A stretch of 63,618 nt of DNA, the filler included, from Basidiobolus ranarum (taxonomy: Eukaryota): NCBI GenBank assembly GCA_040143965.1. It is 34 parts of 34 records of this genome, joined end to end, with 100 filler letters (N's around TTAATTAATTAA, not from the genome) between each part and the next. Parts side by side here need not be neighbours in the genome. Positions count along the whole stretch, not along the records: positions 1,883 to 3,663 come from JASJQH010004346.1; 33 more parts are not named here. One strand, written 5' to 3'. The notes beneath the pieces were generated by a model. The model saw only the letters and a list, made by a program, of their open reading frames with translations. It ran no database searches and was not told where the DNA came from. This document shows, piece after piece, positions 1,783-63,618 of this stretch. Position numbers and translations under genes: made by a program. How positions within the stretch are numbered: the stretch's first letter is position 1; every line of letters starts with the position of its first letter.

Positions 1783-1882
1783 NNNNNNNNNNNNNNNNNN
1801 NNNNNNNNNNNNNNNNNNNNNNNNNNTTAATTAATTAANNNNNNNNNNNNNNNNNNNNNNNNNNNNNNNNNNNNNNNNNNNN
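1783..1882. other. Artificial contig linker (first of 33 identical ones; last at 61752-61851)
   Basis: 44 N + TTAATTAATTAA (stops in all six frames) + 44 N, recurring every ~1.87-1.88 kb; contig lengths fall from 1782 to 1767 bp. Confidence 0.98.
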
Positions 1883-1884
1883 TT

Positions 1885-2478
1885 CGTAAATCCAGACGTA
1901 TTGAGGGCCAAATGTTTGGTGTTGGTTTCCGAAGCCCTAGAGGAGGTAGGGTTGAAACAGGGATATCTCTTTATAGTATTCCTTGGAAAAAAAAGCAGTG
2001 CCTAGAGCAGATAAACAAGGTACAGAAAGATGCGGAGGAATTGGCTACTTCTATTCAGCGATATGTAGACATCTTTTTGCCAGACATAAAGCAAGACTGG
2101 TGCTGTATACAGATGGAGTATCAAACCCCGACCTTACATCGTGATACCTCGCTGCCGAGTTTCTTTGCTACCAAGGATTACTCCACTAAGATTCATGTAG
2201 ACAATGATAAAACTCAGTATGCCATTGGTGTGAGTTTTATTGATGGGAATGTTGAAGAGCAATACTTCGTTATTCCCAAATATAAAATAGCCGTTCCGTT
2301 GAGTCACAACTTATTATGGTTTTGGCGACCTTCCATTGATGCACACGGGACTACCTCCGTTAATTCTAAAACAAAAGGACATCGATATACCGCAGTTTTC
2401 CAAATCCCAGGAAGACTGGGTAAGAAAAGGACGTATGAAGAGGAGCCCCAGGCATCAACGACTACTCGAGCTCCGTGA
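1885..2478 (+). CDS. TET/JBP-like 2OG-Fe(II) dioxygenase, 5'-truncated by the contig edge
   Basis: Frame open from the contig start (RKSRRIEGQMFGVGFR); HxD = HVD (2194-2202); FVIPKYKIAVPL strand; distal His in DAHGT (2344); Arg in RYTAVFQ (2383); CpGs retained. Confidence 0.75.
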   Translation, partial: RKSRRIEGQMFGVGFRSPRGGRVETGISLYSIPWKKKQCLEQINKVQKDAEELATSIQRYVDIFLPDIKQDWCCIQMEYQTPTLHRDTSLPSFFATKDYSTKIHVDNDKTQYAIGVSFIDGNVEEQYFVIPKYKIAVPLSHNLLWFWRPSIDAHGTTSVNSKTKGHRYTAVFQIPGRLGKKRTYEEEPQASTTTRAP

Positions 2479-3551
2479 TTCATCAATAAAAAGCCATACA
2501 ACTCACTACGCTACGTTGCACTATCGCCATTGAATCCATGTTGCTTCACCTATATTTTGACAAGTTTGTTGTATATATATTAAACACCATCAACCTGGGA
2601 ATATATAAGCATAAATTTCAATACTGCCTTTATTAACTAATTACTATAGTTTTATTGGATTTTTGTGCGCTGACCCTTGCTACTGCATAATTAACTGAGG
2701 TTTACTGATTCAGTCATACATTACAAGAAGAATCATAATTTAGTGGCACGAATTAGCACTTCTTTTTACTTATATAGTAATGAAGTAGAGCTTGACACAT
2801 GATCGCCGATTATTTTGCAACATGCGTTGTAAGGTGGTAAGAAAGAATTCCAAAATAATTCCAAAATCGGAGTTCAGGTATAGTAGAGAAATATTATAAT
2901 TTACTATAAGGTACATTGGTGAATTTTTAAGAGAAGGAAGTAGCTACCATTCTGAATGTCGTTATAAATGCACTTTAACTGATGTCTTTCTTTATTCTTG
3001 CATACATCGAACATAGTTAGATGTGGTGAATGAATTGGATTCAATTAAGGAGCTGTAATCAGTTGTATTTATGTTTCAAGAGCCAGCTCATATTAGATGA
3101 TGCTTTTTATTAATATGAATATCAGCACTCTCACTGTAAGGTTAGTATAGTTTGACAACAGGGCCATTATATATATAGTCTCAAATTACCACGGACTATG
3201 TATGATGACACTGATCACCAAACAAAAGAGACGACATTCATAATTCTCAACGAAGGTCCAGAACTTTATTACCTTGGTGTGGACCAAGCATTTTGACAAT
3301 CTAGAGCTATTCATTGTCAAACCAGTAGTAGATAGTGTCATTCCCCTGGAATACGGCCATGACCTTTGGTGCATAAAATTCAACATATAATAAACAGAGA
3401 AGGTGAACTCGTCGATTTTTCCAAACTTGTATATTTACTTCCCCATTTGGTCTAATTCCACTTTATTTCAACAATCGATATATATCTAGTAAGGTATATG
3501 CATATATGTATATAAAAACGATATAGTTTCATCATTTTCATAACGTTGTAC

Positions 3552-3662
3552 CTAGTATTTATAGGCTGACCCACCACTTCCACCACCATTGCCTCCATAG
3601 TCACCACCAGATCCGCCACCACCACCGCTGTATTTTCCACCGCTTCCACCACCATTGCCTCC
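3552..3662 (-). CDS. C-terminal fragment of a glycine-rich protein
   Basis: Minus-strand frame GGNGGGSGGKYSGGGGGSGGDYGGNGGGSGGSAYKY*, running off the contig end. Confidence 0.65.
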   Translation of the reverse strand, partial: GGNGGGSGGKYSGGGGGSGGDYGGNGGGSGGSAYKY

Positions 3663-3763
3663 GNNNNNNNNNNNNNNNNNNNNNNNNNNNNNNNNNNNNN
3701 NNNNNNNTTAATTAATTAANNNNNNNNNNNNNNNNNNNNNNNNNNNNNNNNNNNNNNNNNNNN

Positions 3764-11971: not shown

Positions 11972-13063
11972 GCTGGAAAGGAACATATCTGGTAAATTTA
12001 TAGATGCTTCATCATTGATTGAGTTAGTTTCTGGCATGATAATGCCTTCCAAAGTGGATAGTGGATTGCTAGACTGCTCATCAATTAAGTCCTCTGTTCT
12101 TGCTGTTTTTTTTCTTTCATGCCAGCAGGCTTTGGCTTGGAAGCAGATTTTGACTTAGAATTTGAATACTTTTTGATTGGCATCATAATTTTCAGAGGGT
12201 AAATTTGGTGTAATAAGATTGCTTAGAAACAGCTTATAGTAAGCCAAAATTGCCATCCATTACCAGAAATATTTTGTAATCCCCTGATGCCTCATCTGTG
12301 ACACCATCTTAGAATCAGCTGATGATAATGATTGGCTACACCTAAAATACCACCCTTACACAGTAGGTGTTCTTTTTTCCACAATATCCTTCTCATGCCA
12401 CAACTAAGATGTTTAAGGAAGCCCTGCTATTATTGTCACTAATTCTTGTGCTCTGAAAGCCAGGGGCCTCATGGAAAAAAAATCACAAGCATGGTCTCTT
12501 TACAAAGCCACCAGCTGCACAAAGCCTGGTGAATATCAGCAGTATTAAGTGCACCATATCAACTTTAGTTTTGCCCACCAAGTCCACTGACTGTACTTTG
12601 CGTTAAAGTTTTGGTAACACTGCCAAAAGTCAAGATACCATGGAGTTACCACAGTTATAGGACCAGAATGATGTAGATAGAAATACAACTTTGGATGAAC
12701 CACTAAGTCCAGACAACTTTGAGGACATGCTACTAGATGTTGACCTCAGTTGTTCCAGTACTGATGGTAGTACCTCAGAAGTTGAAGCAGAAGACAACAC
12801 CTTAGTTACAGACTCTTTGCTATTGGCAAGCACTAGTCCACCCATAACACTTGCAGTAAAGGAAGCAGCTTTTGTTATTGAGGAGTGGAGAGTTCAATCC
12901 AATTTTAGCAACCCGGTGTTTATTAGTTTTCTTACACTTTTACCACAGTTGATTGGCAACTGTTGCTTGCTACAGACCTGGTACAAGTGGAAAACACTTG
13001 TCAATTGTACAACTCATAATCCTTTAGTAATTAAACTGCCTTCATGTCCAAATGGTTGTTTGC
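11972..13063. mobile_element. CACTA-like element core: ORF2 N-terminus (-, ATG ~12183-12186) and transposase N-terminus (+, ATG ~12395)
   Basis: Minus M(M)PIKKYS...ASKPKPAG; plus MPQLRCLRKPCYYC ... KLPSCPNGCL. Confidence 0.75.
12187..12394. promoter_or_regulatory. Putative bidirectional promoter between ORF2 and transposase
   Basis: ~208-bp non-coding spacer between head-to-head ATGs; conserved at ~9970-10180 and partly at 62480-62570. Confidence 0.45.
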
Positions 13064-28562: not shown

Positions 28563-29945
28563 AGTTGTATGATTGACAAGTGTTTTCCACTTGTACTAGG
28601 TCTGTGGCAAGCAAGGGTTGCCAATCAACTGTGGTAAAAGTGTACAAAAACCAATAAACACCTGGTTGCTAAGATTGGATTGAACTCCCCACTCCTCAGT
28701 AATCATAGCTGCTTCCTTTACAGCAAGTGTTATGAGTGGACTGATGTTTGCCAATAACAAAGAGTCTATAACAAAACTGTTGTTTTCTTCTTCAACTTCT
28801 GATATACTACCATTAGTACTGGAATAACCAAGGTTAACATTTAGCAGCAAGTCCTCAAAGTTGTCTGGACTTACTGGTTTAACCAAAGTTGCATTCTGAC
28901 CTACACTATTCTGGTCATATAACTGTGGTAACTCCATGGCATCTTGTCCTTTGACAGTGTTACCAAAACTCTGAAGCAAATTACAGTCAGTGAACTCAAT
29001 GGGCAAAACTAAAGTTGATATGGTGCACTTATTACTGTTGTTATACACCAGGCTTGGTGCAGCTGGTGACTTTGTAGAGTGACCATGCTCAAAATTGGCT
29101 TCCAAGCCAAAGCCTGCTGGCATGAAAGGAAAAAAACCAAAAAGAACAGAGGACTTAATTGATGAGCAGTCTAGCAATCCACTATTCACTTTGGAAGGCA
29201 TTGACTTTCTGGAAACTAACTTAAGTAATGATGAAGCATTAATCAATTTACCAGATTTGTTCCTTTCCAGCAATAGTGCAAGTGAAGAGATTGTAATCCC
29301 TCCATTATGTAGTAAATCAATAGTTGAGCAAAGTTCAACCAAAACACCATCAAGACCATCAACTTCCAAACTGGCTGCTTTGCCCACTATTGAATAACCC
29401 TCCATAGAAAATTTGGATAGAATTATTACAACAAGGGAATTGCAGGCAGAACACCATATTGATTTATATGTAATCATAAGTAAAAACTATGAAGTTGCTG
29501 TACAGGCCATGACAAGCAATACTGCCACAATATTGTAATTAATGCAGCATTTGGAAGCAACTAGTTAACAGTTAGAGAGTCACTCAAGAATGATAAAAGA
29601 CCTTAAGAATGATGTACTTGAGCTACAGCAACATGCTGCTCCCTCCATCCATTCACATACTGGATTTCAATCAATTCCACACCATATATATGAATGTCAC
29701 TGTGACAATCTAGCAGAGCAGAATATGTTTTGGACCAATAAGCCTACACAATGACCCAAAATTGCTTGGGCACATAAATGTAGAAATCACATAAGAAAAC
29801 CAGCAAACCAAATGATTCTGAATGTCAGAGCTGCAATGATTTGCTCTAGTGATGAGTGGTTTGACAATTTGGAAACTGTGTGGTATCTGGCCCAGAATCA
29901 CCTGGATTTGAGCCAATTGTGGAAAAACCAAAAACCAGGCATTAC
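28563..29945. mobile_element. CACTA-like core with the spacer deleted: transposase N-part (-) fused to ORF2 (+)
   Basis: 28563-29090 matches 12490-13010 in reverse; ASKPKPAG ORF2 sequence from ~29095. Confidence 0.75.
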
Positions 29946-62480: not shown

Positions 62481-62579
62481 TTGAAGTTTTCAGATGGTCA
62501 ACTTGGTTTAATGTAACTGCCTAGAAACAGCTTATAATAACCAAAATTGCCATCCATTACAGGAAATATGATAGAATAT

Positions 62580-63618
62580 CAGAAGTTGAAGAAGAAGACA
62601 ACAGTTTTGTTATCAACTGTATGTTATTGGCCAACATTAGTCCACTCATAATACTTACTGTAAAGGAATCAGCTTTGATTATTGAGGAGTGGAGAGTTCA
62701 ATTCAATCTTAGCAACCAGGTGTTTATTGGTTTTCTTACACTCTTCCCACAGTTGCTGGGCAACTATTGCTTGCCACAGACCTGGTACAAGTTGAAAACA
62801 CTTGTCAATCATATGACTTATAATCCTTCAGTAATTAAAGTACCTTCATGTCAAAATGGATGTTTGGCTTTCACTGGTGATCTGAAAAATCTGAAGTCAT
62901 ATACTGTTTGCACACCATTGGCAATCACTGAATCAGGTAAATATTGTTTGTATTTAGCTTACATACCATTGATTCCCTGTCTTAAAGTTTTGATGAAATC
63001 ACCAAAATATAGATCATTGATCTAATACCAAAGTACTCACCATAAAGTTGATGGTATTACTAATGTACTTGATGGATATCACTACCAGAATCTGAAAAGT
63101 CAAGGTTACTTTGAGAACATATATGATCACACATTTGTGTTGGCTCTGGATGGTTTCTCACTAAACAAATATACTATTGGAAAGGCTTGCTGGCTAATAA
63201 TTTTAATCAACTTAAATCTTCCTCCTTCTGAACAGTACAAGAGTCATAATATTTTGAAACTATCAATCATATCTGGAACTAAATCATCAGTGCTTATAGA
63301 TAACTTCTTGGAGCCTTTGATTGTGGAGTTTGAATGGTTACCTAATGTGGTTCAGATGGGTGAATATTTTATTAAAGCTAATATCACTGTATGTATTGGT
63401 GACACTGCTGCCATCAGTAAACCTGGAGGTTTTGCAGGCACAATGCACTATCTTGCTGTAGATTGTGAAAATCAAACAAGTTTTCTCTAACCGGCATAAG
63501 CATTGCACCTTTTGACCTTGAATCTTAGCACTCAATGTCTGACTATTCTCCCCATGTTCTCTTTGGTTTTCCCGAGGTTAGATACAATTGATAGAGCTAC
63601 AAAGCCCCCCAATTCCAG
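62580..63618 (+). mobile_element. CACTA/EnSpm (Transposase_21/Tnp2) transposase catalytic region, decayed
   Basis: CQNGCLAFTG; LALDGF; W..ILINLNLPP; DNFLEPLIVEF; IGDTAAISKPGGFAG. Confidence 0.88.

Follow-up and report, generated by a model that had tools for sequence, protein, structure and literature searches.

A 5′-truncated TET/JBP-family dioxygenase gene, probably host-encoded, in the early-diverging fungus Basidiobolus ranarum

The 63,618-nucleotide stretch of the Basidiobolus ranarum assembly (GCA_040143965.1) analysed here, which we call the window, carries a gene for an Fe(II) dioxygenase of the TET/JBP family (the TET gene), of which the 3′ two-thirds are present and intact. The encoded protein is sister to a group of paralogs in Basidiobolus meristosporus, and we propose that it is a host-encoded enzyme that would use 2-oxoglutarate (2OG) to oxidize 5-methylcytosine (5mC) in DNA; taken as a whole, this proposal seems to us evenly poised between right and wrong. 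Its parts are graded separately: the gene is intact apart from a truncated 5′ end and encodes a TET/JBP-family member, 2OG dependence is probable, and so is its status as a gene of the host. The window is not a single stretch of chromosome. It is a chain of short unplaced contigs, 34 in all (1767–1782 bp, ordered from long to short and recovered by splitting at runs of N), held together by 33 artificial linkers with stops in all six frames. Because neighbouring contigs were joined artificially, they provide no genomic context for the gene, and any neighbourhood across a join is an artefact; physical linkage is limited to the contig at 1883–3663, and the sequence before 1783 or after 3763 is unlinked.

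The open reading frame (ORF) runs through 197 codons with no internal stop, ends in a TGA at 2476–2478 and contains 21 CpGs, an observed-to-expected ratio (o/e) of 0.77. The original prediction had described an uninterrupted, CpG-retaining frame at 1885–2478 with a series of dioxygenase motifs, and every one of those motifs is present in the translation (Table 1). Conservation was counted in a 22-sequence alignment consisting of the window protein and 21 database hits, from which P0005, a repetitive 1422-residue protein with spurious matches, was left out. In this alignment H104, D106, F128, P131, Y133, H154 and R167 are conserved in at least 90% of the sequences, and D108, at position HxD+2, is kept in 18 of the 22. 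R167 and T169 align to TET2 Arg1896 and Ser1898 in the profile alignment, and R16, in the N-terminal strand motif, is a candidate equivalent of TET2 Arg1261 and CMD1 Arg244. The N-terminus had also been described as lost, and the frame indeed stays open as far as the first codon of its contig, which starts at 1883; the edge is a join inside the window. Two bases (TT) precede the first codon and fit the Ile codon of the LIRKS motif found in homologs. The N-terminal half was not found on the other window contigs by tblastn with full-length homologs (other hits E ≥ 0.29).

Scanning all 1.84 billion cluster representatives yielded 22 proteins at E ≤ 0.001, five of them at ≤ 1e-10 and one at ≤ 1e-30. 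The best match, P0004 (ORY07220.1, K493DRAFT_295613), is a 386-residue protein of B. meristosporus CBS 931.73. Residues 1–184 of the window protein align colinearly to its residues 190–372 with 74% identity and one single-residue gap (E 9.5e-90); a match of this kind rules out a chance reading frame. The ORF thus begins at the equivalent of residue 190 of P0004, and about 189 N-terminal codons are missing. When P0004 itself was the query, three proteins only were retrieved, all from B. meristosporus: P0004, P0034 (K493DRAFT_303872, 393 residues) and P0003 (K493DRAFT_363281, 344 residues), whose genes sit on 264-, 97- and 29-kb contigs, respectively. The B. meristosporus paralogs are 72–74% identical to the window protein over the common region and 65–80% identical to P0004. 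In an alignment of the window protein with two of them, 128 columns are invariant, and the C-termini are similar in size.

A maximum-likelihood tree of 19 rows, built without P0005, P0011, P0012, P0019, P0020 and P0022, unites the window protein with the three B. meristosporus paralogs in one clade (support 100/99) and places it as sister to all three (91/91). Given this position, it derives from a different species or lineage. Named relatives beyond B. meristosporus are the chytrids Geranomyces variabilis, G. michiganensis and Powellomyces hirtus and the amoebozoan Planoprotostelium fungivorum, and 15 of the 20 hits looked up are environmental sequences (P0022 was outside the look-up). The named relatives in the set of 22 hits include no Dikarya protein. 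The best 8000 candidates of a word-indexed search across 5.8 billion proteins, made with a profile, yielded only the Basidiobolus proteins, the window protein and one environmental sequence, and a scan of metagenome contigs with a 3-sequence alignment gave 592 pattern matches and zero true relatives. Judged from these homologous sequences, the window gene belongs to a small TET branch common to Basidiobolus (Zoopagomycota), chytrids and an amoebozoan. An early-diverging fungal setting, as had been proposed, is therefore upheld, the closest named relatives being those of B. meristosporus and the chytrids.

The Pfam family PF20515 (2OG-FeII_Oxy_6, Tet-like 2OG-Fe(II) oxygenase) matches the window protein over profile positions 29–209 of 211 with E 3.5e-7 and 30.9 bits, above the curated gathering cut-off of 27 bits, and the full-length homolog P0004 scores 32.6 bits. 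Against the PDB, a family profile of 22 sequences retrieved CMD1 (7cy4) at E 2.6e-10 with 43.7 bits and TET2 at E 0.015; its remaining matches were at E ~1. An AlphaFold2 model of the window protein, generated from the 22-sequence alignment (pLDDT 83.1, pTM 0.78), shows a strand at its N-terminus, a pair of long helices and successive strands in a pattern characteristic of the double-stranded beta-helix. In a Foldseek comparison of this model with the PDB, ranks 1–10 are all occupied by CcTet (E 7e-8 to 7e-7, TMq 0.54–0.59), followed by TET2 (TMq 0.62–0.63), CMD1 and NgTET1 (TMq 0.48–0.56). ALKBH2 appears first at rank 16, and AlkB, ALKBH2 and ALKBH3 have TMq values of 0.33–0.44. For the full-length model of P0004 (pLDDT 71.8), CcTet, TET2, NgTET1 and CMD1 stand alone among the matches listed (21 rows, to rank 26), with ALKBH1 and FTO ranking after the TET-type enzymes. 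An AlkB or prolyl-hydroxylase identity was rejected on this fold ranking.

Thus, the TET/JBP-like Fe(II)/2OG core that had been read from the motifs is confirmed by the PF20515 score above the cut-off, by the profile matches to CMD1 and TET2 and by the predicted fold; neither assignment to another 2OG class nor absence of a double-stranded beta-helix was found in the profile and structure checks, in which TET-type enzymes outrank AlkB. We are highly confident that the window protein belongs to the TET/JBP family. A protein-atlas look-up provided leads only, including one cluster in which 16% of the members carry Tet_JBP. In kind the gene is ordinary, a Tet-like label having already been assigned automatically to one B. 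meristosporus homolog: the UniRef name of ORY07220.1 is 'Tet-like 2OG-Fe(II) oxygenase domain-containing protein'. Its branch is small and unstudied within a well-known family. Literature searches on Basidiobolus and early-diverging fungi found no study of the B. meristosporus paralogs or of Basidiobolus TET homologs, and the fungal TETs listed in the consulted part of a 2026 review are CcTet and transposon-borne Dikarya genes only (PMC13297926).

The gene model of P0003 jumps from ...IPKYKI to PGRLGKK..., omitting 39 residues that bear the distal His and the 2OG-binding Arg, and scores 16.8 bits, under the PF20515 cut-off; an intron called in error or decay of the paralog would account for the gap. 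P0019 (629 residues, encoded on an ENA contig of 89 kb) carries a tandem pair of TET-like domains and was dropped from the second alignment.

In the mechanism that we propose, H104, D106 and H154 would hold Fe(II), and R167 and T169, probably together with R16, would hold 2OG. Oxidative decarboxylation would give rise to a ferryl species, which would hydroxylate the methyl group of a base flipped from duplex DNA. The target base would most likely be 5mC, evidently carried on the repeats of this genome. We infer all three elements of this scheme, namely the use of 2OG, DNA as the substrate and 5mC as the base. The choice of co-substrate can be addressed by comparison with solved enzymes. In TET2, Arg1896 binds the C5-carboxylate of 2OG, and in CMD1, which uses ascorbate, Trp358 sits where the side chain of Arg1896 would be and the enzyme's own Arg410 turns away, as described in the sections consulted of PMC7854593. 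CMD1 Trp358 aligns to Ser117 of the window protein, and the Basidiobolus and chytrid relatives carry Ser, Cys, Ala or Val at this position and no Trp. With Ser117 in place of Trp358, and with R167 and T169 matching TET2 Arg1896 and Ser1898, 2OG rather than ascorbate is the likely co-substrate.

The case for 5mC comes from the genome. CpG o/e is at most 0.10 on 19 of the 34 contigs (pooled 0.05, with CpA at 1.36 and TpG at 1.35), intermediate on eight (pooled 0.29) and at least 0.60 on seven (pooled 0.76), and the TET contig, at 0.71, is one of the seven. When one ORF was taken from each of ten CpG-poor contigs (o/e 0.00–0.10), eight of the ten matched retroelement families in Pfam (RVT_2 four times, and RVT_1, gag_pre-integrs, Retrotran_gag_2 and Chromo), consistent with copia, gypsy or LINE ORFs. 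Long ORFs on CpG-normal contigs, three of which were tested, encode the 51-kDa subunit of NADH dehydrogenase, Hsp70 and an RGS protein. Retroelements that have lost almost all CpG, with a matching gain of TpG and CpA, bear the signature of decay driven by methylation. The 'methylation-scarred repeats' of the original prediction are a property of the assembly and not of the TET contig. B. meristosporus encodes CDCA7F, a partner of the 5mC maintenance machinery, and nearly all CDCA7-bearing species also have DNMT1 and HELLS, B. meristosporus being outside the exceptions listed in the portion consulted of that study (PMC10538959). The CpG decay on 19 of the 34 contigs and the presence of CDCA7F in B. 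meristosporus together make 5mC a plausible substrate; that it is the main one appears to us neither favoured nor disfavoured. Separately, the first contig (1–1782) encodes a chromodomain (E 9e-14) that presumably belongs to a Ty3/gypsy element, and its 1782 bp contain a single CpG (o/e 0.02).

As for the gene's ownership, tblastn located one TET locus in the window (~60 kb of contigs), and the CpG level of its contig resembles that of the contigs carrying the NADH dehydrogenase, Hsp70 and RGS genes. Because the window has a single locus and B. meristosporus three paralogs, CpG is gene-like and no transposase follows downstream on the contig, we lean toward a low-copy host gene, which we regard as somewhat more probable than transposon cargo.

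Several observations weigh against this interpretation of the gene as a host-encoded TET enzyme acting on 5mC: (i) The window protein has no match to the older Tet_JBP model PF12851 at E ≤ 10, and a single-sequence search of the PDB gave chance-level matches only (E 0.43 and 1). (ii) The catalytic domain is incomplete. In the P0004 model, about 140 poorly predicted residues are followed by confident structure from about residue 140 onward (strands 148–153 and 156–163, helix 168–183), so that the window ORF lacks about 50 folded residues in addition to the N-terminal region. (iii) In solved TETs, 5mC is read by Asn or Asp at HxD+3 (Asn1387, Asp234, Asp350), by an aromatic residue at Arg+6 (Tyr1902, Phe295, Phe416) and by His or Arg at Arg+8, according to the sections consulted of PMC7854593. 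At these positions, which in TET2 are Asn1387, Tyr1902 and His1904, the window protein has K109, Q173 and P175, and the readers of TET2, NgTET1 and CMD1 are unmatched. The corresponding family columns contain mostly Arg, Thr/Gln and Thr/Ser, with Tyr at Arg+6 in just two of the 22 sequences. (iv) Common GC content and a common assembly are all that ties the TET contig and the CpG-poor contigs to one organism. (v) The upstream side of the gene lies beyond the contig and so could hold a transposase, a multi-copy tnp2/EnSpm-type transposon is present in the genome, and TETs borne by transposable elements are common in Dikarya, as reported in the text consulted of PMC12730594. The reader mismatch touches the substrate and leaves family membership intact. 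D108, at HxD+2, may take over the contact to N4.

Transposon-encoded TET/JBP genes of fungi were reportedly described by Iyer et al. in 2014. The window gene could likewise be cargo of a DNA transposon of the EnSpm/Plavaka/KDZ type, with a transposase upstream of the break and a product that alters or removes the element's own 5mC to escape silencing, a role suggested for the TET-bearing transposons of rusts, mushrooms and truffles. We consider this unlikely for the window gene. TET/JBP genes borne by transposable elements are known from Pucciniomycetes, Agaricomycetes and Pezizomycetes on at least ten transposon lineages, in the account given by the main text of PMC12730594, and Basidiobolus genomes are rich in transposable elements, with CMC-EnSpm and Harbinger expansions, in the part consulted of PMC5751038. 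The last contig of the window contains a Transposase_21 (tnp2) ORF at 63026–63490 (+) with E 2.3e-9, ORFs that by eye resemble its immediate upstream neighbour at 62525–63025 (+) occur on two further contigs (12661–13062 (+) and 28596–29486 (−)), and the contig break falls inside the TET gene, as it would at repeated sequence. However, copy number is low, with one locus in ~60 kb and three paralogs in B. meristosporus compared with 46 copies in Coprinopsis (PMC12730594, main text). The o/e of 0.71 on the TET contig contrasts with 0.03–0.08 on the three tnp2-family contigs, and the 1.07 kb downstream of the gene contains neither a transposase nor a long ORF before the end of a convergent Gly-rich gene is reached. 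Moreover, the TET contig has zero blastn matches (E ≤ 1e-3) to the other 33 contigs of the window. On the three tnp2-family contigs themselves, no TET domain was seen.

If the gene does belong to the host, its base pocket admits a less conventional reading, which we hold to be improbable. Basidiobolus, a few chytrids and amoebae may keep a small, old, host-encoded TET branch with a base pocket unlike that of any solved TET, having Lys or Arg at HxD+3 and neither a stacking aromatic nor a His/Arg reader. Its substrate or manner of action would then be new for TETs (e.g., 6mA, thymine or a hypermodified base), or else the enzyme would patrol genes against the CpG methylation that drove the repeats to near-zero CpG.

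Another reading, which we rate lower still, is that the enzyme erases N6-methyladenine (6mA), the abundant mark of early-diverging fungi, by oxidizing it in duplex DNA in the manner of CcTet. CcTet, the closest match by structure, works on 5mC as well as 6mA (PMC11040006, sections consulted), 6mA is variable and often high in early-diverging fungi according to the literature consulted, and the canonical 5mC-reading residues are, as noted above, unmatched in the window protein. Yet the residues to which accommodation of 6mA by CcTet is ascribed, Gly331 (HxD+3) and Asp337 (HxD+9), correspond by offset to K109 and G115 and are unmatched as well; identity to CcTet in structural alignments is just 12–15%, and the family profile did not find CcTet at E ≤ 10. 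With the 5mC residues and the 6mA residues of CcTet both unmatched, we infer the substrate from context only.

It is very unlikely that the enzyme is instead a CMD1-like hypermodifier, which would use ascorbate or another co-substrate to add a group to 5mC, or would hydroxylate thymine as JBP does. By sequence, CMD1 is far ahead of the other solved structures (E 2.6e-10 as against 0.015 for TET2), four of the 22 homologs (P0013, P0014, P0023 and P0024) combine a Trp at the CMD1 Trp358 position with an R-[IV]-[GA] motif like the RWG of CMD1, and other activities of divergent fungal TETs are not excludable according to the main text of Kojima 2025 (PMC12730594). On the other hand, Trp358 is replaced as described above both in the window protein and in its relatives from Basidiobolus and chytrids, which keep R-Y-T, like R-I-S in TET2, and the Trp-bearing group forms a branch of the tree separate from the Basidiobolus clade. 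These four environmental proteins are, in their own right, candidate ascorbate-type TET homologs outside the green algae.

A dead fragment, that is, a truncated pseudogene remnant or a contaminant without function in the organism, is equally hard to credit: the 3′ part alone is present and the model of the paralog P0003 lacks the distal His and Arg, but the ORF has maintained 197 codons of AT-rich DNA without a stop or frameshift and with all catalytic residues intact, the frame is clean to the first codon of the contig with a leading TT that fits the Ile of LIRKS, and GC and CpG of the TET contig are like those of other gene-bearing contigs.

Comparison with known systems places the window gene as follows. 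The three B. meristosporus proteins ORY07220.1, K493DRAFT_303872 and K493DRAFT_363281 are like the window protein in motifs, C-terminal size and colinearity, and differ in that the window copy lacks the first ~189 residues. CcTet of Coprinopsis cinerea (7vpn, 7w5p, 8jkk) is the best structural match (E ~1e-7 with the fragment, 5e-12 when full-length P0004 is compared) and is likewise a fungal TET-family double-stranded beta-helix enzyme with an HxD...H triad. It is, however, 12–15% identical and belongs to the AG type linked to Kyakuja transposons (PMC12730594, main text). CMD1 of Chlamydomonas reinhardtii (7cy4–7cy8) aligns through the HxD motif, the core strands, HGT and the Arg, but it uses ascorbate to make 5-glyceryl-methylcytosine and its Trp358 blocks 2OG (PMC7854593, sections consulted), whereas the window protein has Ser117 and R-Y-T. 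Human TET2 and Naegleria NgTET1 have the same fold, and the Fe triad, Arg1896 and Ser1898 align; the window protein differs in having neither a Cys-rich domain nor a low-complexity insert.

Transposon-encoded fungal TET/JBP genes of the PU, AG and PE types resemble the window gene in having a fungal TET/JBP domain and in a setting of methylation-type repeat decay and abundant EnSpm-type transposons. They differ from it in that the window gene is low-copy and has no transposase on its contig, and the PE type carries HxE where the window gene carries HxD (PMC12730594, main text). Reports of the three types are confined to Pucciniomycetes, Agaricomycetes and Pezizomycetes, and the main text of the same study (Kojima 2025, PMC12730594), its supplements aside, does not mention Basidiobolus, Zoopagomycota, Mucoromycota or Chytridiomycota.

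How early-diverging fungi might actively remove DNA methylation is an open question. Just two fungal erasers have been characterised according to the part consulted of PMC13297926: CcTet, a transposon-linked basidiomycete enzyme, and an enzyme of the AlkB type in Mucor. A low-copy TET homolog in a genome whose repeats show extreme CpG decay and whose genes do not is a concrete candidate for asking whether early-diverging fungi oxidize 5mC or 6mA, and whether fungal TETs started as host genes and were later captured by transposons.

Table 1. Coordinates of the TET gene, its motifs and the other features of its contig, with conservation in the 22-sequence alignment
Feature	Position	Strand	Remarks
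3′ part of TET/JBP-family dioxygenase gene	1885..2478	+	197 codons and TGA stop; open at 5′ contig edge
GQMFGVGFR, N-terminal strand motif, residues 8–16	1906..1932	+	G14 kept in 19/22, M10 in 14/22, R16 in 13/22
H104-V-D106, first two Fe(II) ligands in the facial triad	2194..2202	+	H kept in 21/22, D in 20/22
FVIPKY core strand (FVIPKYKIAV, residues 128–137)	2266..2283	+	F128 kept in 20/22, P131 in 20/22, Y133 in 21/22
H154-G-T, distal His of the facial triad	2344..2352	+	His in 21/22; aligns to CMD1 HGT and TET2 HAT
R167-Y-T169-A-V-F	2383..2400	+	R167 kept in 20/22; T169 is T in 15/22, S in 1
Contig of the gene, second of 34, 1781 bp	1883..3663	no strand	GC 0.377, CpG o/e 0.71
Artificial join N44-TTAATTAATTAA-N44	1783..1882	no strand	marks 5′ end of the gene's contig; further joins at 3664–3763 etc.
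AATAAA	2485–2490	no strand	7 nt after the TGA stop
Downstream stretch, ~1.07 kb	2479..3551	both strands examined	longest ORF ≤ 82 codons; no transposase
Glycine-rich C-terminal end of convergent gene (GGNGGGSGG...SAYKY, then stop)	3552..3663	−	runs off 3′ contig edge

The remaining features of the contig lie downstream of the gene. The non-coding flank at 2479–3663 has a CpG o/e of 0.66, and a Pfam search with the glycine-rich tail encoded at 3552–3663 (−) gave no match. Each linker between contigs is 100 bp long and has the form N44-TTAATTAATTAA-N44; its central 12-mer, TTAATTAATTAA, occurs 33 times in the window at a spacing of ~1.88 kb, compared with 0.05 occurrences expected.

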